A stretch of 36,682 nucleotides of DNA from a virus (taxonomy: Duplodnaviria; Heunggongvirae; Uroviricota; Caudoviricetes). The notes below the pieces were generated by a model that saw only the letters and a list, made by a program, of their open reading frames with translations, was not told the origin of the DNA and searched no databases. The DNA lies in the IMG/VR virus record IMGVR_UViG_2545824713_000010; one strand, written 5' to 3'. Both the position numbers and the translations under genes were made by a program. Shown here piece by piece: positions 4,011 to 35,419 of the stretch; positions within the stretch are counted from its first letter, which is position 1, and every line of letters starts with the position of its first letter.

Positions 4011-4332
4011 GAAACCAGAACATGCACACACAAAAAAACCGCTTGCCATGCCGCAATCAGCCAGGTTACATTTCCGCTGCACCTCACAAAACGGGTGCCG
4101 GGTTTCGCAGCCTGCTGACAAACATAGCGCACAACCGCGCCAGCGGTTTTTTTGTGCGTACTGTATCGCCACGTTTTTTTCGCACACGAATTATGGCGGG
4201 GCGTACGGGGCCGACTTCGGTCGGGCCGGGTTCTATGTTTGCCGGTACTGCGAACCTCGTACGTCTCGCCACCCACAGTTTCGCAGCTCTGGATGGTGAG
4301 TTTTCAAAACTTACACACATAGAGGCCACACC

Positions 4333-4563
4333 ATGGCAAACCGCAAACAGCACCGCACTATCGCGGAGCGTCGTCACATCCAGACTGAAATCGATCGCAG
4401 ACTCACCCGCGCTGCACACATCGCCTTTATCATGCAATCCAACACATTGCACAGACTCAACAGCACTATTTCAGCCGACTACTGCGCCGCTGTATTCAGC
4501 TATCTGGCGGAAGACCTCCTGTCTCTTCAGGATCTCATCCAGCAGCAAAACAAACTCCATTAA
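4333..4563 (+). CDS. Hypothetical protein
   Basis: 76-aa ORF with RBS agagg. Confidence 0.4.
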   Translation: MANRKQHRTIAERRHIQTEIDRRLTRAAHIAFIMQSNTLHRLNSTISADYCAAVFSYLAEDLLSLQDLIQQQNKLH

Positions 4564-4635
4564 TTCCTGTTCCGGGCCTTTCCTGCACCTTGCGGCGGGA
4601 GGCCTTCGCACATCTGTAACAAGAGGATTGCCGCA

Positions 4636-5001
4636 ATGATTCTCGCCAACGACTTTCTTGAATACCTGCTCAACACAGAGCGTGATCTTGCCGTTCGCGT
4701 GCGTGAACGTTATGACATGTACCTGAAATCCCTGCCTGTACCGCAGCTCGCTGACGGAAAGATTGTTATTGATGGTCGCTACATGATTGACAGCCACGAG
4801 GGAAATTACAGGCTTTACCGCATTGAAGGTGGCACTCCGTCCGTTATTGGCATTTACCAGCGCCCATCCTCTGCAATCGTCGATGTGATTGCCGACAGCA
4901 TCCGCATCACACATCGCTATGCCGACACAGAAGACACCGTGCTGGAAATTCAGCGGCTGGCTGCCGTTTGCCGTGACACCCTGAACGGTATGACGCAGTA
5001 A
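4636..5001 (+). CDS. Hypothetical protein immediately upstream of A
   Basis: 121-aa ORF with RBS aagagg. Confidence 0.5.
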   Translation: MILANDFLEYLLNTERDLAVRVRERYDMYLKSLPVPQLADGKIVIDGRYMIDSHEGNYRLYRIEGGTPSVIGIYQRPSSAIVDVIADSIRITHRYADTEDTVLEIQRLAAVCRDTLNGMTQ

Positions 5002-5007
5002 ATCAGT

Positions 5008-7830
5008 ATGACGACAGAGTACATCAGGGACTGGCAACAACCGCGCCACGCAGTGGGGCGTGAAGGAACGGGGATCCCCGCACCTGAATCCGCGCTTTCC
5101 TCCTGGCTGGATGCCTACCGGGCAGAGAACGAGCGCCGACAGGAAAAGGCTGATGCGGCGTTCTCCGCCACGCCGCTGGGCAACCTGATTAATAAAAGCC
5201 TGGATGCACAGGAAAAACAGGACAAAACCATCACACTGGCAGGAGACGCCAGAAAGCAGGCACGCGGCGCGGTGGATGAAGCCATGGCCTCGCTGCGCCT
5301 GCTGCCGTCCTATCTGCGCGATCCGCTTATTCGCCACCTCTCCTTCCTGCGCAAAAAACAGGAATCTGACCGCCAGAAAGGTAAAAAGAACCAGCAGGCG
5401 GAACGCTATGCACGCGGAACCCTGCGCAAAATATTCGAACGTCTGGATCGCACTGACGGACGCTGGCTGACACCGGGTTATCGCTCCCTTGCCGGACGCG
5501 AACGCCTGGACGATTTGCTTTACCTGCCGCAGCTCAACAAACACCAGATACAGACGCTGGCCACCATGACGGCGGCGATGTTCAGCAGCACCTTCGAAAA
5601 ACTCTGCGATGGCTTTGGCGCGACCGATGGCGAACTGACCATGGATGTAACGCTGAAGACGTATCAGATGCTGGCCCGCATGGCGTTACACCTGCACATC
5701 ATGCCTCCACATTATGACGCACTGACAACAGATAAAGACCGGAGGAACGAACCGGACACGGAGCTGCTGCCGGGCGCAGTCCTTCGCCTGACCTGTGCGG
5801 AATGGTGGAAACGCAAACTGTGGCTGTTACGTTGCGAGTGGAGAGAAGAACAACTCCGCGCCGCCTGTCTGGTTTCCAGAAAAACATCGCCCTATCTGAG
5901 CCAGGACGCATTAAGCGAGTTTCGCGCACAGCGCGAGAAAACACGCGATTTCCTGAAAAGTTTCATGCTGGAAAATGAAGACGGGTTCACGATTGATCTC
6001 GAGACGGTGTATTACGCGGGAGTAAGTAACCCGGTTCACCGTAAGGCAGAAATGATGGCCACCATGAAGGGGCTGGAACTTCTGGCCGAAGCCCGTGGCG
6101 ACAGAGCGGTGTTTCTGACTGTCACCTGCCCGTCAAAATACCACGCAACAACGGAGAACGGTCATCCGAATCCCAAATGGAACGGGGCCACCATGCGCGA
6201 CTCCAGCGATTACCTGGTTAACACGTTTTTTGCGGCGGTCCGCAAAAAACTGAACCGCGACGGTCTTCGCTGGTATGGCATCCGCACGGTGGAGCCTCAC
6301 CATGACGGCACTGTGCACTGGCATATGATGGTCTTTGCACATCCGGACGAGATTGAAACCATCGTGTCCCACGTCTGCGATATTGCCATTCAGGAAGACC
6401 GCCACGAGCTGGGCGATGACATAACTCCGCGTTTTAAAGCGGAGTACGTCGACGGCTCAAAAGGCACGCCAACCAGCTACATCGCCACCTACATCGGAAA
6501 GAACCTGGACAGCCGCGCCGTGGATGGTATCGACCCGAAAACGGGCAAGCCACGCGTTGACCACGAAACCGGAAAATCAATGGCCGAGAGCGTGGAGCGC
6601 GCCATCGGCTGGGCGCGCCTTCACCGGGTCCGCCAGTTCCAGTTCTTTGGCATCCCCTCCCGTCAGGTGTGGCGTGAACTGCGCCGCCTTGCCAGCCAGA
6701 TGGCACGCAACCCGGAAGGCCCGCAACGGCTGAAGGATGACGCAATGGATGCAGTGCTCGCTGCCGCTGATGCCGGGTGTTTTGCCTCCTACATTGAAAA
6801 ACAGGGCGGCGTACTTGTTCCACGCAAAGACTACCTGATTCGCACCGCCTACGACCTCGCAGATGAGCTGAACGATTACGGCGAACAGAGCGTACAGATT
6901 TACGGGATCTGGTCACCACTCATCGGGGAGTCTTCCCGTGTGTGCACACATCCGGATAACTGGAAGCTGGTAAGACGTAAACCGGAAGCGGAAGACAGCG
7001 CCCGCGAAAATGGTTTTGACCTTCAGGGCGGTCCTGCCGCCCCTTGGACTCGTGGCAATAACTGTCCCCGTGTACAGGAAACAGGCAACAGCGGGACAGA
7101 ACAGTCGAAAGAACGGCCAGCACCGTGGCCGCAGCTTCCTGACGGCGTTGAAGTGAACGAATGGATGCGCTCACTGAAACGGCACGAACGCCGGGCGCTG
7201 ATGCGTTCGCTTCGTGACAAACAGGCAAAAAACAGCAGTGATGAAATGCAGAGCTGGACACAGAGCCGCAAACAGCAGCGGCCTTTGCCTGATAACCACG
7301 AATTACTCGCTAAAGAATGGCGGGAGTCTGCCGAATCTCTCGGCCTGCATATCGGTGAACAGCAGACGCAGCACCTGCTACGGGGCGGCAGCCTGTACGT
7401 TGACGGCAGCATCATTGCACCGCAGGGATATGAAATTGTACGCAAACCGGATACCCGCCCGGACAGCCGAATCACGCAGCTCTGGCAGCACCTGAGCCGT
7501 AATCACGGCGTAAGCAGCACGGAGATCCGCCATAACCCGGTCGCCAGCTATCTGGCACAGCTGGGGGCATCAGACCCCGAAGCCGCCGCACGCCTGGCAT
7601 CCGCACTTCAGCAGGATCAGAACACCATGAAAACACCCGTTACCGTGCTTTCTGACATGCTGCGCGCCATCCGCGACGCAGAGCACGCACAGAGAATCAG
7701 TGAAACCACTGAACGCGCCAGCCGCAAAGCAGACCTGCTGCAGGGTGGCCTGACCAGTGGAAACAAAAAACAGACAGAAACGGGACTCACGAATCCCGTA
7801 AATGAGCAAAAAACGCGCAGCGATATATGA
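5008..7830 (+). CDS. A: Replication initiation endonuclease, P2 gpA family (rolling-circle initiator), with a long C-terminal extension
   Basis: 940 aa; HUH-like motif TVHWHMMVFAHPDE and paired tyrosines in YIATYIGKN are typical of the gpA nickase; position matches P2 A. Confidence 0.85.
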   Translation: MTTEYIRDWQQPRHAVGREGTGIPAPESALSSWLDAYRAENERRQEKADAAFSATPLGNLINKSLDAQEKQDKTITLAGDARKQARGAVDEAMASLRLLPSYLRDPLIRHLSFLRKKQESDRQKGKKNQQAERYARGTLRKIFERLDRTDGRWLTPGYRSLAGRERLDDLLYLPQLNKHQIQTLATMTAAMFSSTFEKLCDGFGATDGELTMDVTLKTYQMLARMALHLHIMPPHYDALTTDKDRRNEPDTELLPGAVLRLTCAEWWKRKLWLLRCEWREEQLRAACLVSRKTSPYLSQDALSEFRAQREKTRDFLKSFMLENEDGFTIDLETVYYAGVSNPVHRKAEMMATMKGLELLAEARGDRAVFLTVTCPSKYHATTENGHPNPKWNGATMRDSSDYLVNTFFAAVRKKLNRDGLRWYGIRTVEPHHDGTVHWHMMVFAHPDEIETIVSHVCDIAIQEDRHELGDDITPRFKAEYVDGSKGTPTSYIATYIGKNLDSRAVDGIDPKTGKPRVDHETGKSMAESVERAIGWARLHRVRQFQFFGIPSRQVWRELRRLASQMARNPEGPQRLKDDAMDAVLAAADAGCFASYIEKQGGVLVPRKDYLIRTAYDLADELNDYGEQSVQIYGIWSPLIGESSRVCTHPDNWKLVRRKPEAEDSARENGFDLQGGPAAPWTRGNNCPRVQETGNSGTEQSKERPAPWPQLPDGVEVNEWMRSLKRHERRALMRSLRDKQAKNSSDEMQSWTQSRKQQRPLPDNHELLAKEWRESAESLGLHIGEQQTQHLLRGGSLYVDGSIIAPQGYEIVRKPDTRPDSRITQLWQHLSRNHGVSSTEIRHNPVASYLAQLGASDPEAAARLASALQQDQNTMKTPVTVLSDMLRAIRDAEHAQRISETTERASRKADLLQGGLTSGNKKQTETGLTNPVNEQKTRSDI

Positions 7831-7878
7831 AGCGCGCAAAAAACAGGCAAAAACGGGATTTCAGAATCCCGTAAACGA
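7765..7878. repeat. Two imperfect 41-bp direct repeats (7765..7805 and 7838..7878), each with an internal palindrome (acggga...tcccgt)
   Basis: Copy 1 encodes the last codons of A; copy 2 lies in the A-parM spacer with a perfect 8-bp inverted repeat acgggatt/aatcccgt. Confidence 0.6.
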
Positions 7879-7906
7879 TTAATTAATCAACATAAGGAAA
7901 AGCGAC

Positions 7907-8866
7907 ATGAAAATTTGTATCGACGACGGCTCCACCAACATCAAGCTGGCATGGACTGAGAACGGCGAACGCCGCAACGCCATCAGCCCGAACAGCTTCA
8001 AGTCGGAATGGTCTGCGCCGTTCGGTGGCACGCAGCCCGCGAACTACATGCTTGATGGCGTGCGCTATGGTTTTGATCCGGTCAGCGATCGCTTTGTCCA
8101 GACGACCGACACGCAATACCAGTACAGTGATGTGAATGTCATTGCCATTCATCACGCGCTGGTCAAATCAGGCATCACGCCACAGGAGGTGGATGTGGTT
8201 GTCACCCTGCCACTGAGCGAGTATTTCGACACAAACGCACAGCCGGACATAGCCAACATCAACCGCAAAAAAGCGAACGTTATGCGCCCGGTGGAGTACC
8301 AGAACGGCGAAGCATTCACTATCCGTAACGTGCGGGTTATGCCTGAATCCATTCCGGCTGGCTTTAAGGCACTGGCTGACATGAGTCCGTTTGAATCCCT
8401 GCTGATTGTGGATTTGGGCGGAACCACGCTGGATGTGGCAAAGGTTCAGGGGCAGCTGGCAGGTATCAGCCAGGTGTTTTGCGATCCACACGTAGGCGTT
8501 TCCCTGATGGCTGATGCCGTGCTGTCGGTGATGGCCACTAACGGTATGCGTACCAGTCACCACATCGCCAATACCATTATTGAGCACCGTCACGATGAAG
8601 CCTGGCTGCGCCAGCACATTCACAATGACGCGCATTACAACAGCCTGATGGCGGTTATTCGTGAAAAGGAGGAGACACTGAAACAACGAGTGATCCGCGC
8701 GCTGGCGGGTTTTTCCGGTTACGGGCGGGTGATGGTTGTCGGTGGAGGGGCGGAGATTGTGGCACCCGCTATCCGCGAAGCCTGCGGAGTTAATGCGACT
8801 TTCATCACGGACGGGGTGCCACATTTTGCTCTGGTTAATGGGCTGTACGCAATGAACAAGGAGTAA
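7907..8866 (+). CDS. parM: ParM/StbA-family actin-like ATPase
   Basis: 319 aa; N-terminus MKICIDDGSTNIKLAW closely matches plasmid R1 ParM/StbA as recalled (FIDDGSTNIKLQW), and YSDVNVIAIHHAL resembles the R1 WQYSDVNVVAVHHAL region; length equals ParM; RBS aagga. Confidence 0.8.
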   Translation: MKICIDDGSTNIKLAWTENGERRNAISPNSFKSEWSAPFGGTQPANYMLDGVRYGFDPVSDRFVQTTDTQYQYSDVNVIAIHHALVKSGITPQEVDVVVTLPLSEYFDTNAQPDIANINRKKANVMRPVEYQNGEAFTIRNVRVMPESIPAGFKALADMSPFESLLIVDLGGTTLDVAKVQGQLAGISQVFCDPHVGVSLMADAVLSVMATNGMRTSHHIANTIIEHRHDEAWLRQHIHNDAHYNSLMAVIREKEETLKQRVIRALAGFSGYGRVMVVGGGAEIVAPAIREACGVNATFITDGVPHFALVNGLYAMNKE

Positions 8867-8870
8867 ACCA

Positions 8871-9182
8871 ATGACGACACCAACCAGAAGAATAAGTTTC
8901 TATCTGAAGCCAGCTGCCGTCAAGAACGAAGGAGAAGCATGCGCCTGGCTGGACAGCCTTACACCAGAAGCCCGCAAAAGCGGCCAACGCGTGGCTTTTC
9001 TGGCCGGGCTGGCACTTCTGAAGACGAATCCGGCAGAGGCTTACCGACTGGCCGCATGGGCTGATGATGAGATGTTACCTGTGACACAAATCAGCTCAAA
9101 AAAGTTTGAAGCACAGTCTGCACCAGTGGCTAAGATAACCAGCCAGATGGCTGGGAATATCCGGGCGTTATTTCCTGAGTAA
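8871..9182 (+). CDS. parR: ParR-like ribbon-helix-helix adaptor
   Basis: 103 aa directly after parM. RISFYLKP and LDSLTPEARKSGQRVAFLAGLAL parallel R1 ParR (RTIAFKLNP, LDSIPQGERSRLNRAALTAGLAL) as recalled from memory. Confidence 0.55.
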   Translation: MTTPTRRISFYLKPAAVKNEGEACAWLDSLTPEARKSGQRVAFLAGLALLKTNPAEAYRLAAWADDEMLPVTQISSKKFEAQSAPVAKITSQMAGNIRALFPE

Positions 9183-9310
9183 AAGCATCTGCGCGAAAAA
9201 TGCTCACATTTATAGAAACAGTATCATTCCATTTGGCGCACTTACTTCAATAATCGATCTGTTAAACAAATAGATTGTCTATTATCTATCGATTAAAACG
9301 ATCAATTATC

Positions 9311-9338
9311 TTGACAGTAATGTGCCTTTTTGTAAGAT
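9311..9338 (+). promoter_or_regulatory. Sigma70-like promoter (TTGACA, 16-nt spacer, TAAGAT) preceded by a dyad aatagattgtctatt
   Basis: Near-consensus -35 and -10 hexamers read directly; dyad at 9270..9284 could be an operator. Confidence 0.4.
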
Positions 9339-9344
9339 CGTTCG

Positions 9345-9530
9345 CATTGTGAGCGACAAGATAATTGCGCGGCATTGTCCATGCAAAACGCCCCAATAGC
9401 AGCAACTATTGGGGCGTAGAACTCGGTCGGACTCACTTAACCTGATATGCGTGCCTTCCGAAGTAAATCAAAATGTGCGTCGTATATTTTATTGCTTACA
9501 CGCACCTCTGTAAAGGCACGCATATTTTTC
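9345..9530 (+). ncRNA. Candidate structured RNA or attenuator leader
   Basis: Perfect 12-bp stem acgccccaatag/ctattggggcgt (9388..9417); long-range 13-bp pairing atatgcgtgcctt (9445..9457) with aaggcacgcatat (9513..9525) followed by a T-run, immediately before the RBS of the 9547 ORF. Confidence 0.3.
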
Positions 9531-9546
9531 CTATGAGGTAAATAAA

Positions 9547-9816
9547 GTGCGGGCTAAAACAGGTATTTGCAAGAACCCTCATCGTTATAACCCAACATTT
9601 CTGTCTCTCCCTGAATATCAAGGACAAGAAGGTCGGCACAAATGCGCTGCCTGTGCTTTTGAGCTAGGCATAAAAGATGCGCTTGAAGGACGCGCTATGG
9701 CTCAGAATGATTTAGTTTTAGCTAACATTCCGTTTAGCCAGGCTGGAACTGTAAGGCACAGAGATGCTTATGAAGCATATGTTCGTGGTTGGCGATTAAT
9801 ACACAGCAACAATTGA
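9547..9816 (+). CDS. Hypothetical 89-aa protein with paired cysteines (CKNPH...CAACAF)
   Basis: GTG start with RBS tgaggt; followed by a strong terminator; function unknown. Confidence 0.5.
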   Translation: MRAKTGICKNPHRYNPTFLSLPEYQGQEGRHKCAACAFELGIKDALEGRAMAQNDLVLANIPFSQAGTVRHRDAYEAYVRGWRLIHSNN

Positions 9817-9823
9817 TATTTTT

Positions 9824-9849
9824 GAAGCGCCGATAAGGCGCTTTTTTTT
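9824..9849 (+). terminator. Rho-independent terminator (aagcgcc gata aggcgctt plus T8)
   Basis: GC stem and run of eight T immediately after the stop of the 9547..9816 ORF. Confidence 0.65.
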
Positions 9850-10060
9850 GTTTGCACGATAGTGCACAAGTTTGCACAATTTTTTTGAACGACTTTTTGT
9901 ACTTCCGGCCCGCGTGGCGGCTGGATCCGTCAAGGATCCGTACGTGCACAAAAAACGCGTTTTTTCTACGCGCAGGTGACGGGGGAACAGCCCGCGTTTC
10001 AGGGGGTAAATAGCATTCCCTGAACGATGTCGCAGAGATAGAACAGAATGGCTGTATTTC
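9850..10060. other. Probable cos / packaging region
   Basis: Non-coding stretch between the cargo slot and Q, where P2 cos lies; contains cgcgtggcgg reminiscent of P2/186 cohesive-end sequences (from memory), ggatccgt direct repeats and the palindrome aaaaaacgcgtttttt. Exact cos termini not determined. Confidence 0.3.
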
Positions 10061-10302
10061 TCACGCTGAGCGTGAAAAAGACGTGAGGGCTTTTGATTTG
10101 ATGGGGTGAAAGGTAAGGCCGTCAAAATCGCACTGAGACGGCGAGAACATGCAGTCAACGCGGTGGGATTGCGTAAGAGTCTGACTGTCGATGATGGCAA
10201 TCAGCAGGAAAGCGTCGTGAAATTATCTGACTGATACAGGAGCTGGAGAGTCGGGGCATAAATTTTTTATGCCCCGGCGAAGCAGCAGACAAGCGAAGCG
10301 CG

Positions 10303-11349
10303 TCAGGATGTGGGCTGGGTGTCTAACAGTGCGTAAGGGTTAAAGCGGATCACCTCTTCGCCAAGCCAGTCATTGATGTGCTTCATGGCCTCCATGACGG
10401 GCATCAGCTCGTTAATTGCGTAAACCCGCGCGGCCTTCTCCACATCACCAAACGCACTTTTTTCGCCCGGCATCGCCCCCATCAGTTGCGGCGGAACGCG
10501 GTGCGCAGCCAGCACATCATCACGGGATGCCGCCTTAACATTCATGAACTCATCCTTTGCGGTGATCTGCTGGAACGGCAAAATTTGCACCCCTTCTTTG
10601 CCCCCGTTGGGCGCATGAATGAGCACGTTTTTAAATGCACCACCACCACGCGCACCCTGTAACGTTTCTTTCAGGGAGTCCATGCTTTCGCGGTTTACCT
10701 GCGCTGCACCGATGTAGATGATGCACCCGGCGTGGGATCCGTTGTCGTAGTACAGTTTTCTGAACATGTCCGCCGAATGAGAAAGGCTGGCCGAGAGTAA
10801 TGCGCCAAGATATTCCGGCATGCCGTAGATTTCCTGGTTAATATCCGGATTCATCAGGTGGCACACTTTGCCAGGGCGAAACTGGAACGCGTCCTTGCCA
10901 TCCTGCACATACCACCATGATTCAAGATCGCTTCCGCGTCGCATGTATTTCGCCAGGGCGTGCCGTAATTTAAGCGGTTCGCCGAGCATATTGCTCCGAA
11001 GCTCAAGGAATGCGTTACCGAACACAAACCAGTCCAGCGCCAGCGCCGAGAAATCCTGCCGGGAAAGCAGCGGGTGCGGGATGTAGCACCCGAGCAATAC
11101 ATTACGCTTAAAGTAAAGCGCAGACTGATGCCAGGACGTTTGCCGGGCGGCTCTTGCCAGACCGTACCAGTCCACCGGGGTTTCATACCACCGCCCGTTA
11201 TCAGCACAGTACATATTGTCCAGCAGGTCATGCCCGGTCAGGCGATAAGGACCATCAAATGTGAATGCACTGAGCGATGATTCTTTCCTGAGCGCATCAG
11301 CGAGATCAATGCGTGAACTCATGCGCACTTTTTTATTTTTTCTGCTCAT
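10303..11349 (-). CDS. Q: Portal protein, P2 gpQ-like
   Basis: 348 aa; size and position (upstream of P, divergent from O) match P2 Q. Confidence 0.9.
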   Translation of the reverse strand: MSRKNKKVRMSSRIDLADALRKESSLSAFTFDGPYRLTGHDLLDNMYCADNGRWYETPVDWYGLARAARQTSWHQSALYFKRNVLLGCYIPHPLLSRQDFSALALDWFVFGNAFLELRSNMLGEPLKLRHALAKYMRRGSDLESWWYVQDGKDAFQFRPGKVCHLMNPDINQEIYGMPEYLGALLSASLSHSADMFRKLYYDNGSHAGCIIYIGAAQVNRESMDSLKETLQGARGGGAFKNVLIHAPNGGKEGVQILPFQQITAKDEFMNVKAASRDDVLAAHRVPPQLMGAMPGEKSAFGDVEKAARVYAINELMPVMEAMKHINDWLGEEVIRFNPYALLDTQPTS

Positions 11350-24353: not shown

Positions 24354-24887
24354 TCATTCTGGTTGTTCTGGAAACGTTACTGGCAGGCTGGAGGTGTCTG
24401 TGGATTCGACCTTCTGCGCATAGAGCATCCACTCGGTTAATTTTTGTTTATTCTCGTTGGAAATGATACCCAGCCGTAGCTGTGAGTCCCATAGCTGGGT
24501 TTTATCCCTGACGAGCTGTAGCAGGCTTTGCTTTTCATTTTCCGCTTGTTGCCTCTGCTCTTCCTCGGTATAAGTTCGCTTTATCACTACGCCATCTTTG
24601 AACATCCATTTCCCCGAAATATCAGCCCGGCGATTTGCTGTAATATCAGGTAATTCAACGACGCTTGCACCCTCTGGATTAATTGCTGAAACATCCTTTT
24701 CAATACAAATAATAACGCCGTTATGGTCATAGACCATTTTCAAAGTGTCTGGCTGGAAATTCTTTTGTTCCTCATACCAGTTTTTTCCATCATCTGAATA
24801 AAGCCATTTGATGTTAAATTGCTTTGTTAGCTGGTATTGCTCTTTTGTTTTAGGGTTGCCAGCAGTAATGTTTTTTAAGTGCATCAT
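24354..24887 (-). CDS. Alternative tail fibre assembly chaperone (G', Mu U'-like)
   Basis: 177 aa; N-terminal half near-identical to G ([29 protein letters not shown]), C-terminal half divergent. Confidence 0.8.
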   Translation of the reverse strand: MMHLKNITAGNPKTKEQYQLTKQFNIKWLYSDDGKNWYEEQKNFQPDTLKMVYDHNGVIICIEKDVSAINPEGASVVELPDITANRRADISGKWMFKDGVVIKRTYTEEEQRQQAENEKQSLLQLVRDKTQLWDSQLRLGIISNENKQKLTEWMLYAQKVESTDTSSLPVTFPEQPE

Positions 24888-24889
24888 CG

Positions 24890-25834
24890 TTAAATACTCC
24901 CCGCGTTATACCACGTCCCATTAATGCAATACTGAATTGGCCTTGCCTGAGTTGTATCAATTAATTCATCACGGTTTCCGTTAACTGAACCCGTAACGAC
25001 ATAACCTGACCTGTCAGACCAGCCGGGACCATTCCATGTCTGAACAGATGACAGACCGCCAAGGCGAATACCTGTAATAAACCTTGAGTTACATTCTGCC
25101 TGCGTATATGCTCCAACATCTCCCGCAGAGGGTTTGCGGGTTGTGGTGTAAAACTCTGACCAGTCAGCTTCAAAGCCATAACCATCTCGCGCTGAACGAT
25201 AATAAATACCGCCGTTCTTATAATTCACACGGAACTGAACCGCCGGGCAACTCCCCGCATTCATATTAAAGTGAAGAATCAATGTTGACGCTCCACTAAT
25301 AGTCGCATTATAAACGCCGCTATTTGAGTTCCATCCAACAGCTTTGTCATTTCCAACAGTGCTTCCTGTCTGCCCTAAAGCAAATGCAGGCTGCTGGTTT
25401 TTCGTGTTGTAGTCTCTTCGCCAGCCAGGAGCATAAGCATTACCATGATTAATATAGGTGAATTGAGCGTTAGTAATTCCGCCACCGCTGGATGTACTCG
25501 GCGTAGTAACGCGTATGGTCATTGCGCCGCGAGTGCCAATAACTTCCACCACAGCACCTGCAAGACAAATATTTCCGCAACCTGTATCTGTAATGACCTT
25601 ATTGTTTGCATAAGCCCATGAGCCTTTGCACATCCAGTAAGGATGGTTAAATGCCCCCTGACTCTCCAGCCACGAAATGAATTGTGCGGTTGTCCAGGTC
25701 TGACTATCGCCACCAATATTCAGCCATGCGCTATATGCGCGGCAGGCACCAATATTTTTGGTGAAGGTATCTTTTCCTGGAATATCTGCGCCGTTCTGTT
25801 TTTTCTGTAATGCGCCAGAAGCCTGATTTACCGT
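24890..25834 (-). CDS. Alternative tail-fibre C-terminal segment (Hv'), no own start; expressed only after inversion fuses it to the H constant part
   Basis: Open frame continuous from the right crossover site to the stop at 24890 (track ORF 24890..25633); ends QYCINGTWYNAGSI, parallel to the H C-terminus. Confidence 0.7.
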   Translation of the reverse strand, partial: TVNQASGALQKKQNGADIPGKDTFTKNIGACRAYSAWLNIGGDSQTWTTAQFISWLESQGAFNHPYWMCKGSWAYANNKVITDTGCGNICLAGAVVEVIGTRGAMTIRVTTPSTSSGGGITNAQFTYINHGNAYAPGWRRDYNTKNQQPAFALGQTGSTVGNDKAVGWNSNSGVYNATISGASTLILHFNMNAGSCPAVQFRVNYKNGGIYYRSARDGYGFEADWSEFYTTTRKPSAGDVGAYTQAECNSRFITGIRLGGLSSVQTWNGPGWSDRSGYVVTGSVNGNRDELIDTTQARPIQYCINGTWYNAGSI

Positions 25835-25914
25835 TTCCTGTAAACCGAGGTTTTAGATAATGGCCGTTTCTGGCCTGCATGGCATGATTTGCGCTTTTGG
25901 ACGGGAGATTCAGT

Positions 25915-26505
25915 GTGCTGATTGGCTATGTAAGGGTATCAACAAATGACCAGAATACAGACCTGCAACGAAACGCTCTTGTTTGTGCAGGATGTGAACA
26001 AATATTTGAAGATAAATTAAGCGGGACAAAGACTGACCGACCGGGATTAAAACGCGCTTTAAAGCGCCTTCAACAAGGTGACACGCTGGTTGTCTGGAAA
26101 CTGGATCGCCTCGGGCGAAGCATGAAACATCTGATTTCTCTCGTCGGGGAACTACGGGAGCGAGGGATTAATTTTCGCAGTCTGACCGACAGCATAGATA
26201 CATCTTCTCCAATGGGGCGTTTTTTCTTCCACGTGATGGGTGCCCTGGCTGAAATGGAACGTGAATTAATTGTTGAACGTACACTGGCCGGACTGGCGGC
26301 AGCGCGCGCACGGGGGCGCACAGGCGGACGTCGACCGAAGCTGACAAAAGAACAGCATGAGCAAATAGCAAGGCTGATTAAAAACGGTCACGACAGAAAA
26401 CAACTGGCAATAATTTACAGCATTGGTATATCGACAATTTATCGTTACCACCCCGCAGGAGAATCAAGTGGAACAATTGAGAAGAGTAAACAAAATAACC
26501 GCTAA
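25915..26505 (+). CDS. Serine DNA invertase, Hin/Gin/Cin/Pin family
   Basis: GTG start gives MLIGYVRVSTNDQNTDLQRNAL, strongly matching e14 Pin / Hin as recalled; catalytic-serine motif VRVST and a C-terminal HTH. Confidence 0.85.
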   Translation: MLIGYVRVSTNDQNTDLQRNALVCAGCEQIFEDKLSGTKTDRPGLKRALKRLQQGDTLVVWKLDRLGRSMKHLISLVGELRERGINFRSLTDSIDTSSPMGRFFFHVMGALAEMERELIVERTLAGLAAARARGRTGGRRPKLTKEQHEQIARLIKNGHDRKQLAIIYSIGISTIYRYHPAGESSGTIEKSKQNNR

Positions 26506-34042: not shown

Positions 34043-34188
34043 AATCAGTTGCCGGGATAAGGTCGATAAGGCATCCTGTCTCACTCTATACCAGCTAATC
34101 AATTGACACATATCAATAAAAAGCCTGATAAAATCAAAATATTTTGTTACAAATGTCAGCTAGTAGAGGGCCAAAGGAGGCAGATTAT

Positions 34189-34521
34189 ATGGCATTAATC
34201 AAATGTCCTGAATGCCAGAAAGAGGTGATCGATTCAGTATTGTCTTGCCCTGCTTGTGGCAAACAACTGAAAAATCTTAAACGCTCATTTTTTGGAGAAC
34301 TCATTAAGTGTTTTTTTATATTATTTAATATTTTTATAATCTACACGATTTGTATTGGGCTAAGAGAGGTGGGTGAAATAATAAACAACGCCACATCCGA
34401 TGTCGAAAAAGCCGGTACAGTTATTGGTACGGGCTTAGGTTTAATTGCTATTGGAGGCTTATGGGTTATTGGCAATATCATTATCGGAAATTTAGTATTT
34501 CTTACTAAACCAAAGGGATAA
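34189..34521 (+). CDS. Zinc-ribbon membrane protein (CPEC...CPAC then two TM segments)
   Basis: ATG with RBS aaggagg; AT-rich gene; the N-terminal C-x2-C-x13-C-x2-C is followed by hydrophobic and Gly-rich helices. Confidence 0.55.
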   Translation: MALIKCPECQKEVIDSVLSCPACGKQLKNLKRSFFGELIKCFFILFNIFIIYTICIGLREVGEIINNATSDVEKAGTVIGTGLGLIAIGGLWVIGNIIIGNLVFLTKPKG

Positions 34522-34525
34522 CAAA

Positions 34526-35419
34526 ATGAAAAATGTGATTATTTCTATAGGCGCATCATTTATATCAATTAGTGTGCTACCTGCTCACGCAGCAACTGAG
34601 CATAATAACTTTAAGTCATCACTCCAGTGCCGAGCAATAGAAAATAATAAAGAAAGACTTTCTTGTTATGATAAGTCAATACAACCGACTCGAACGACAG
34701 TTGCTGAAAAATTCGAAAGCAGAGATCAATGCCCTGATGAGAAAGATGATGACAGACGTTTATCTTGTTATGACCGTTTTTTTTCTCCAACATTTACTCC
34801 GCCTGTAAGCTCAAAATCTAAAGTGAAACAGCTAGTAACAACAGAGACTCAGCAACCAAATCTTTCTGAGATATCTAAATGTCGAGCAGAAAACGATAAA
34901 GAAACTAGAGTAAACTGCTACGATAAACTATTTTCACAGGAAAAAGCTACGCAATCTAAATCAAAATTAGAGAAAGCCACAGACTCAGGAAAATGGCACA
35001 CATCCATTACTACATCGCCAATTGATGATTCGAAAAATGTAATTTTATCGTTAGAAAGTGATGATTATATAAGAACTCCATTTGGAGAAGCGGTTACCCC
35101 TACTCTGTTTATAGCTTGCCGAGAAAAGAAAACCGAAGTATTTCTTAATTGGGATGTATATTTAGGCCTTGAACAAACCAGCATGCTGTATCGCCTTGAT
35201 AAACAGAAAGCAGTTGAGCGAAACTGGCTAGTATCTACAGATACAAAGGCTGTTTTTTATAAAGGCAATGACATTAACTTCATCAGAAAACTAGCCAACT
35301 CAAACAAAATGTATGCAAGAATAACCCCTTATAATGAAAGCCCTGTAAGTGCAACTTTCAATTTAAACGGCCTGTCAACCACGCTAAAACCGCTTCAAGA
35401 AGCCTGTAACTGGAAATAG
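34526..35419 (+). CDS. Secreted/periplasmic protein with three Cys-pair repeats (C-x9-11-R/V-x-CYD)
   Basis: N-terminal signal peptide ending AHA-ATE; repeats LQCRAIENNKERLSCYDK, QCPDEKDDDRRLSCYDR and KCRAENDKETRVNCYDK; AT-rich. Confidence 0.6.
   Translation: MKNVIISIGASFISISVLPAHAATEHNNFKSSLQCRAIENNKERLSCYDKSIQPTRTTVAEKFESRDQCPDEKDDDRRLSCYDRFFSPTFTPPVSSKSKVKQLVTTETQQPNLSEISKCRAENDKETRVNCYDKLFSQEKATQSKSKLEKATDSGKWHTSITTSPIDDSKNVILSLESDDYIRTPFGEAVTPTLFIACREKKTEVFLNWDVYLGLEQTSMLYRLDKQKAVERNWLVSTDTKAVFYKGNDINFIRKLANSNKMYARITPYNESPVSATFNLNGLSTTLKPLQEACNWK

Follow-up and report, generated by a model that had tools for sequence, protein, structure and literature searches.

The window analyzed here, a stretch of 36,682 nucleotides (nt) held as IMG/VR virus record IMGVR_UViG_2545824713_000010, is a P88-like prophage of the genus Xuanwuvirus, family Peduoviridae, and carries, between its replication gene A and its portal gene, genes for a ParM-type actin-like ATPase and a ParR-type adaptor (together, parMR). 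We consider it probable, on balance, that positions 7765–9182, which hold two upstream sites followed by parM and parR, are a self-contained, working type II ParMRC partition cassette, one that serves the phage genome while it is circular and not integrated. We favor this reading because the canonical parts of the system are constrained, because its cis sites travel with the genes, and because there is a precedent in AlpAC, encoded by a Corynebacterium prophage; moreover, since the element is almost always chromosomal, its substrate would have to be the phage genome in its circular, non-integrated form. The presence of parMR in such prophages is a common feature, already annotated and already in print together with an episomal-maintenance hypothesis. 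New here are (i) the borders of the cassette; (ii) a candidate parC consisting of two sites; (iii) the domain logic of ParR; (iv) evidence of selection; and (v) the status of parMR as a conserved flank of a variable locus.

An open reading frame (ORF) at 7907–8866 on the plus strand encodes a protein of 319 amino acids (aa), assigned to the actin-fold segregation ATPases by Pfam, PHROGs and a sequence search of the PDB. The Pfam domains StbA_N (3.5e-82) and ParM C-terminal domain (2.5e-67) cover it end to end, and residues 2–316 match the structures of R1 ParM (1MWK/4A62; E=3.5e-92), to which the prophage protein is 46% identical over its full length. The ParM motifs align as phosphate-1 DDGSTNIKL, catalytic MPESIPAG, phosphate-2 DLGGTTLD and adenosine GGGAE, so that the ATP-binding motifs are intact. 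The ORF that follows (8871–9182, plus strand) encodes a 103-aa adaptor of the parR (stbB) family, which matches Pfam PF10784 (Plasmid_stab_B; 9.8e-24) and, across all 103 residues, phrog_2515. As a single sequence it found no match in the PDB; with a profile of its family, the best match was the ParR/StbB of pB171 (2JD3), at a weak E=1.5e-3 over residues 9–75, and R1 ParR itself was retrieved by the same profile (as P0097). Judged by these sequence comparisons, the two ORFs are a genuine ParM and an adaptor of the ParR family. An earlier note on this DNA, which had read them as a full-length ParM/StbA with a ParR-like partner and would have given way had the larger protein proved unrelated to the actin fold, was therefore right about both.

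The prophage is integrative, as that note had also held. At its two ends the window contains the 3' end of the integrase gene and host flk; in an Escherichia coli chromosome with a parMR region identical to that of the window, the prophage sits between pdxB and flk, from which we conclude that it is integrated. DNA corresponding to positions 7700–9500 is present in 1,304 of 5,426 complete E. coli genomes, among them enteropathogenic E. coli (EPEC) E2348/69, O157:H7 and sequence type 131 (ST131) strains, and in 14 phage records; 1,450 of its 1,452 places in the complete genomes are chromosomal and two are on plasmids. RefSeq/PGAP labels the products 'plasmid segregation protein ParM' and 'plasmid partitioning/stability family protein', and PHROGs families exist for both. 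In their analysis of the gpA–gpQ locus, Rousset et al. 2022 (PMC9122126) found a putative partition system there in about a quarter of P2-like phages, listed 'StbA + Plasmid_stab_B' arrangements in their hotspot tables, and proposed that the system serves episomal maintenance, while a paper on the Citrobacter phage phiSM (PMC6456863) merely listed the gene as a 'fitness' factor.

A stable plasmid-prophage lifestyle, as suggested by Rousset et al. 2022 (PMC9122126), would mean that the phage persists over the long term as a low-copy plasmid, instead of integrating or besides doing so. Separate circular P88-like records do exist, namely NZ_CP148288.1 (34,461 bp, entered as a 'plasmid', with the integrase present) and the 'phage' records CP025923.1 and CP025874.1 of complete-genome projects, and the nearest relatives outside the P2-like phages are found on a Regiella plasmid and on phage-plasmid D6. 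However, we consider such a lifestyle unlikely, given the nearly exclusive chromosomal location of the element and the intact integrase, repressor and Cox genes. In addition, gpA, a rolling-circle initiator encoded in the repressed early operon, is the sole replication function, neither a theta-type replicon nor a plasmid Rep being evident in the annotation of P88 and its relatives, and the rare circular records may equally be spontaneously excised or induced DNA. Episomal maintenance, one of the roles offered by the earlier note, can thus appeal to the three circular records, but in the form of a stable plasmid it is poorly supported.

Whether parMR is resident or cargo was assessed at the locus that lies between gene A and cos or the portal gene and that holds tin and old in P2. 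In the window, this locus is bounded by gene A (5008–7830, plus strand; 940 aa, P88 type, Pfam Phage_GPA 1.8e-129) and, on the far side of parMR, by the portal gene (10303–11349, minus strand), so that the location given in the earlier note is correct. A 3.5-kb query reaching from the 3' half of gene A through parMR into the region downstream found matches in 1,444 of the complete E. coli genomes, approximately 1,386 of them at ≥90% identity, and gene A and parM were contiguous in 1,260. Accordingly, parMR follows approximately 91–94% of the P88-type gene A copies (1,260–1,304 of ~1,386).

Two E. coli strains define the mobile unit. In E110019, DNA at 8020–10580 of an otherwise P88-like prophage encodes a DNA methylase and an AAA ATPase, which replace parMR and both of the upstream repeats described below; the replacement is the defense system PD-Lambda-5, the methyltransferase matching PD-Lambda-5_B at 8e-122 in PADLOC, and homology to the window ends at approximately 7728, inside the gene A tail. 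Strain SWHEFF_58 carries parMR in a different P2-like phage, which has an unrelated 768-aa gpA (31% identity); here, homology to the window comprises exactly positions 7765–9182, both repeats being retained from its first base, and a pseudogene remnant of a P88-type gene A tail precedes parMR. This replacement and this transfer identify parMR as a discrete, transferable cassette, the mobile unit being the sites, parM and parR at 7765–9182. Junctions in the gene A tail were found at approximately 7716–7728 (H95–H97) and at 7765 (H98), and cassette DNA supplies the final 22–35 or so codons of gene A. The C-terminal tail of gpA therefore differs between prophages, since the 3' end of gene A (7728–7830) is exchanged along with the downstream cassette.

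On the other side, a hypervariable segment begins at the parR stop codon: among 80 loci, the next 300 nt comprise 22 sequence types unrelated to one another, and most BLAST matches to relatives also stop at 9182. We conclude that parMR is a near-fixed resident of the P88 lineage and a conserved flank of the hotspot, not typical cargo. The earlier note had called it swappable cargo; exchange does occur, as the two strains demonstrate, but the pair stays behind the great majority of P88-type gene A copies, and the variability begins only at 9183. Nor is the pair universal in P2-like phages, P2, 186 and most Peduoviridae being without it.

Outside the P88 lineage, parMR is found at this position in no fewer than three further divergent lineages of P2-like phages (from Plesiomonas shigelloides, Hafnia and metagenomic sources), which share the order gene A, ParM, ParR, cargo, portal, terminase and contain the closest relatives of the window's ParR; more distant members of the ParR family are those of the Regiella plasmid and R1. 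A ParM scan of genome contigs returned three near-identical loci only, and the diversity described here comes from a ParR profile search, which retrieved a small family (42 clusters at 50% identity), and from contig look-ups. The Plesiomonas element has a gpA 55%, a ParM 63% and a ParR approximately 49% identical to those of the window; this parallel divergence suggests that parMR has long descended together with the replication gene.

The location of parMR also raises the question of whether the pair has been repurposed to exclude other phages, plasmids or phage-plasmids, whether by incompatibility between centromeres, by interference from filaments or otherwise, and acts in the manner of P2 tin and old. 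The gpA–gpQ hotspot is known to carry anti-phage systems (PMC9122126), and in E110019 the same slot holds PD-Lambda-5. Nevertheless, we regard a defense or exclusion function as improbable. Neither ParM nor ParR had a PADLOC match at E≤0.01, and parMR is near-fixed and keeps its position across divergent P2-like lineages, unlike the downstream cargo. Furthermore, constraint falls on canonical partition features, the predicted docking tail and the cis sites, and a consensus scan detected no promoter of parMR's own. A tblastn search with ParR against 72,556 plasmids returned only prophage-derived copies, so that no plasmid sharing this centromere is known as a target of incompatibility. For the exclusion role that the earlier note had offered, location is all that speaks in favor.

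The cis sites are two 42-nt direct repeats upstream of parM, each containing a 20-bp palindrome (ACGGGACTCACGAATCCCGT and ACGGGATTTCAGAATCCCGT). Repeat unit 1 (7764–7805) lies within the last codons of gene A, with ACGGGACTCACGAATCCCGT at 7780–7799; repeat unit 2 (7837–7878) lies between gene A and parM, and its perfect palindrome, ACGGGATT-TCAG-AATCCCGT at 7853–7872, ends 35 nt before the parM ATG. The palindrome centers are 73 bp apart, which corresponds to about seven helical turns. The motif has only two matches in the 36.7-kb window, compared with 0.09 expected. Both repeat units are present in all 85 related loci, 84 of which preserve the 73-bp spacing, and within the 142 bp of upstream DNA that travel with the genes there is no other repeated element. 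Counted from the parM ATG, pairs of GGG-N10-CCC occur at −125/−52 in the window, at −131/−59 in Plesiomonas (72 bp apart) and at −128/−55 in Hafnia (73 bp apart), even though ParM of the latter two lineages is only 62–63% identical to that of the window; the background frequency of this pattern is 0.19 per kb, and the window contains no second such pair.

We therefore tentatively favor the view that the two palindromes are a candidate minimal parC with putative ParR-binding sites over the view that they are terminators. The earlier note had reported no canonical iteron array, and an R1-like multi-iteron array is indeed absent upstream of parM in the window, but the two conserved repeats are present there. 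Other members of this ParR subfamily likewise have few long sites and no arrays. In a search for elements with the site but without parMR, 80 viral loci with the exact motif yielded none: 75 had parM, three were cut by contig ends, and two were unrelated single AT-rich hairpins. Rfam reported no family in or near the cassette. As a separate observation, two further ParMR systems, one in a P2-like prophage (L093, 2920–2986) and one on a short contig (L097, 262–326), have a 19–20-bp inverted repeat, GGGAACGAAATAGAAAAAT, upstream of parM, with arms 25–29 bp apart; this appears to be a related GGGA-core site, in an arrangement unlike the pair in the window.

The palindromes could instead be minus-strand intrinsic terminators, or insulators, that protect gene A from antisense transcription originating in the cargo or late region, in which case the ParR site would lie elsewhere or be absent and ParR might only autoregulate. 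Both have an 8-bp stem, a 4-nt loop and a T-rich tail on the minus strand, with minus-strand fold energies of −10.2 and −13.3 kcal/mol, and the plus-strand A-rich tract before each palindrome is conserved. However, the corresponding z-scores are weak (−1.6 and −1.7), and not one compensatory change was found among 24 distinct variants, the substitutions breaking the pairing on either strand. The common allele GCGGGATTTAAAAATCCTGT (17 of 85) loses two minus-strand pairs, and a hairpin is impossible at the Plesiomonas sites, although these have retained the GGG/CCC cores and a spacing of 72 bp; besides, no other repeat in the 142 bp travels with the genes. These results do not support an RNA-structure reading of the palindromes, and, while we retain termination as a rival to the candidate centromere, we assign it little probability.

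Selection on the two genes follows the anatomy expected of a partition system. In an alignment of ParR alleles, with classes down to 43% identity, the protein divides into three parts: (i) an N-terminal segment, invariant to about residue 62, comprising the strand RRISFYLKP and helices, whose residues ~5–62 are predicted to form a DNA-binding domain of the ribbon-helix-helix type; (ii) a hypervariable linker, residues 63–92; and (iii) an invariant C-terminal tail, residues 93–103, containing NIRALFPE and predicted to dock onto ParM. NIRALFPE aligns both with the tail found in relatives, (R/K)xNAxx(L/M)F or RxNAxxLF(P), and with the end of R1 ParR, KKNAMKLIN, which, in peptide work with R1 ParM (Gayathri et al. 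2012), has reportedly been identified as the ParM-docking helix. The prophage ParR is without the extra helix TTxxxIxxLIxSVxP found in relatives of 116–148 aa.

The ratio of nonsynonymous to synonymous substitution rates (dN/dS) is 0.068 for parM (66 distinct alleles); within parR, the N-domain has a value of 0.12, the linker 0.50 and the tail 0.035. With ORFs intact in 82 of 84 loci for parM and in 81 of 81 for parR, both genes are under purifying selection, and the combination of a constrained N-domain and tail with a loose linker points to a working adaptor–motor pair. That parMR is a functionless, passively carried remnant of a past phage–plasmid recombination is consequently most improbable and largely refuted by the selection analysis: it would accord with the absence of the module from a minority of otherwise similar prophages and of a reported phenotype in the literature found, but not with the low parM dN/dS, the ORFs intact in more than 97% of loci, the domain-specific constraint in ParR, or the conservation of the module across lineages with ParM identity down to 56–63%.

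Upstream of parM, at 7878–7899 on the plus strand, a near-invariant ATTAATTAATCAAC motif, possibly a weak −10 region, is followed by the parM Shine-Dalgarno sequence AAGGAA, an arrangement conserved among 50 haplotypes; a related ATTAAYCAA, likewise with a Shine-Dalgarno sequence, is present in the Plesiomonas locus (L091) and in L092. While ATTAATTAATCAAC may thus be a promoter element, a consensus scan detected neither a consensus sigma-70 promoter nor a plus-strand terminator between gene A and parM. Because parMR lies directly behind gene A, with no promoter or terminator separating them, it is probably part of the repressor-controlled early operon with gene A and probably expressed only from the free circle. 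The earlier note had wondered what a plasmid segregation system might do in an integrated prophage; integration is confirmed, but the paradox is weaker if the genes are expressed only when the genome is free.

We propose the following mechanism for a ParMRC cassette that works on the free circle. ParR ribbon-helix-helix dimers would bind the two GGGA...TCCC palindromes, seven helical turns apart, and their conserved C-terminal tails would capture the ends of ATP-ParM filaments, whose growth would separate or position copies of the phage genome. As part of the early operon, the cassette would be transcribed along with gene A, and repression would keep it silent in the lysogen. P2-type replication yields monomeric circles. 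Such circles, produced by rolling-circle replication, may serve as substrate, as may the genome after infection and before integration or the genome after excision. The benefit might be a better inheritance or spatial distribution of free circles, leading to more efficient replication or packaging, as shown for AlpAC, or to surer lysogenization. The wider proposition, that an integrative phage of a Gram-negative host uses a plasmid-derived actin cytoskeleton together with a minimal two-site centromere, located partly inside the gene A tail, for its free circles, is one we advance more tentatively, as somewhat short of an even chance.

Several points weigh against a working cassette of this kind. 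The R1 centromere has ten iterons and that of pSK41 has four, compared with two candidate sites in the prophage, and on the minus strand each palindrome also scores as a hairpin resembling an intrinsic terminator. Site variants showed no co-variation with ParR N-domain alleles among 104 cassette haplotypes, although, with the DNA-reading strand RRISFYLKP invariant, nothing can be learned from this comparison. An AlphaFold2 model of the ParR monomer, based on a 13-sequence alignment, reached a predicted local distance difference test (pLDDT) value of only 55, and, given this low confidence, the ribbon-helix-helix fold assigned to the prophage ParR rests on its sequence. Furthermore, approximately 6–9% of P88-type prophages are without the module, which must therefore be dispensable. 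In publications on P88, phiSM and CP-933T, we met the gene only in lists of 'fitness factors' and found no functional test, and we found no expression data for it in a ciprofloxacin study of EDL933 or in an O157 proteome paper.

A plasmid partition machine is thus encoded by roughly one in four complete E. coli genomes, and its role in an integrating phage is an easily testable question, the exact borders of the cassette and the candidate binding sites making decisive experiments simple. Should the proposed mechanism be true, cytoskeleton-assisted positioning of viral genomes would extend from AlpAC of Corynebacterium to the best-studied family of enterobacterial phages; in parMR, AlpAC would have a widespread counterpart among enterobacteria, and about a quarter of E. 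coli strains would carry a latent, repressed DNA-segregation machine. The two sites would then constitute a very small ParR centromere, informing how few contacts between ParR and DNA suffice to capture ParM filaments. Studies of the P2 defense hotspot should in any case treat parMR as conserved flank and not as cargo.

Other features of the prophage were noted in passing. The hypervariable cargo and cos-proximal region (9183–10302), which begins at the homology break at 9182 and ends before the portal gene, contains a strong promoter-like site on the plus strand (9311–9338) and another on the minus strand (9514→9486), as well as a perfect hairpin (9388–9417) followed by a minus-strand T-run; this minus-strand unit resembles a small RNA and is possibly antisense to a plus-strand leader. 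An ORF at 9547–9816 encodes an 89-aa protein of phrog_3941, a family that assigns no function, and has no PADLOC match; a strong plus-strand terminator follows at 9824–9844, in the same cargo unit, which spans 9183–9850.

In the early region, Rfam matches at gathering level on the plus strand identify isrK (4079–4153; 65 bits) and a C4 antisense RNA (4189–4276; 83.5 bits), both overlapping a 205-aa ORF (4022–4639) without a Pfam match, which suggests that this P2-family phage has a c4/isrK antisense immunity or anti-repressor unit of the P1/P7 type. A serine invertase gene (25897–26505; Resolvase, 2e-50) adjoins opposed tail-fiber and tail-fiber-assembly genes, and the whole region (24354–26505) constitutes an inversion switch for host range, of the type known from Mu Gin and P1 Cin. 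Finally, a second cargo region of low GC content (0.36–0.38) lies at 34144–35419, between the tail/ogr end and host flk, and encodes a zinc-ribbon protein (34144–34521) and a VasI/TagO-like protein associated with type VI secretion (34526–35419; PF11319, 1e-24), neither of which has a PADLOC match; phiSM carries a similar protein, annotated as belonging to the 'T6SS VasI family' (type VI secretion system).

Among characterized systems, the prophage pair is most readily compared with R1/NR1 ParMRC (StbA/StbB), which it resembles in ParM and its nucleotide-binding motifs, in having a ParR of PF10784 with an alignable tail motif, and in the order sites, parM, parR. R1/NR1 ParMRC is encoded on a plasmid, however, whereas the prophage pair is encoded by an integrative phage of the P2 family, and the prophage ParR is shorter (103 aa versus 117 aa in R1). 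The centromeres differ as well: that of R1 consists of ten 11-bp direct iterons flanking the promoter, and the candidate in the prophage of two 20-bp palindromes 73 bp apart, the first of them inside the coding tail of gene A. For ParR, the closest solved structure found with the family profile, that of pB171, provides the comparison for the DNA-binding N-domain.

The StbA/StbB pair of phage-plasmid D6 is similarly related (ParM 47% identical; ParR approximately 35% over the N-domain), and its annotation cites similarity to P88 StbA. D6, however, is a P1-like plasmid prophage of 91 kb and depends on partition for its maintenance, whereas the prophage described here is integrated, and the upstream repeats of D6, of the TCTCAAA type, are unrelated to the GGGA...TCCC sites. 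With P2 tin and old and the other cargo of the gpA–gpQ locus, parMR shares its location between gene A and cos or the portal gene, but differs in matching no defense model, in being near-fixed, and in lying always on the side nearest gene A, the variable cargo beginning only beyond the parR stop codon. In terms of function, the nearest analogy is AlpAC of the integrated Corynebacterium glutamicum prophage CGP3, in which an actin-like ATPase, AlpC, is co-transcribed with a DNA-binding adaptor, AlpA (PMC4446434, PMC5539076). The adaptor binds sites in the upstream promoter region. Induction of the system comes early after excision, and without it the circular phage DNA does not replicate efficiently (PMC4446434). 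The likeness of parMR to AlpAC would be one of function and implies no common membership; AlpC belongs to a different actin-like family and acts in a Gram-positive host.

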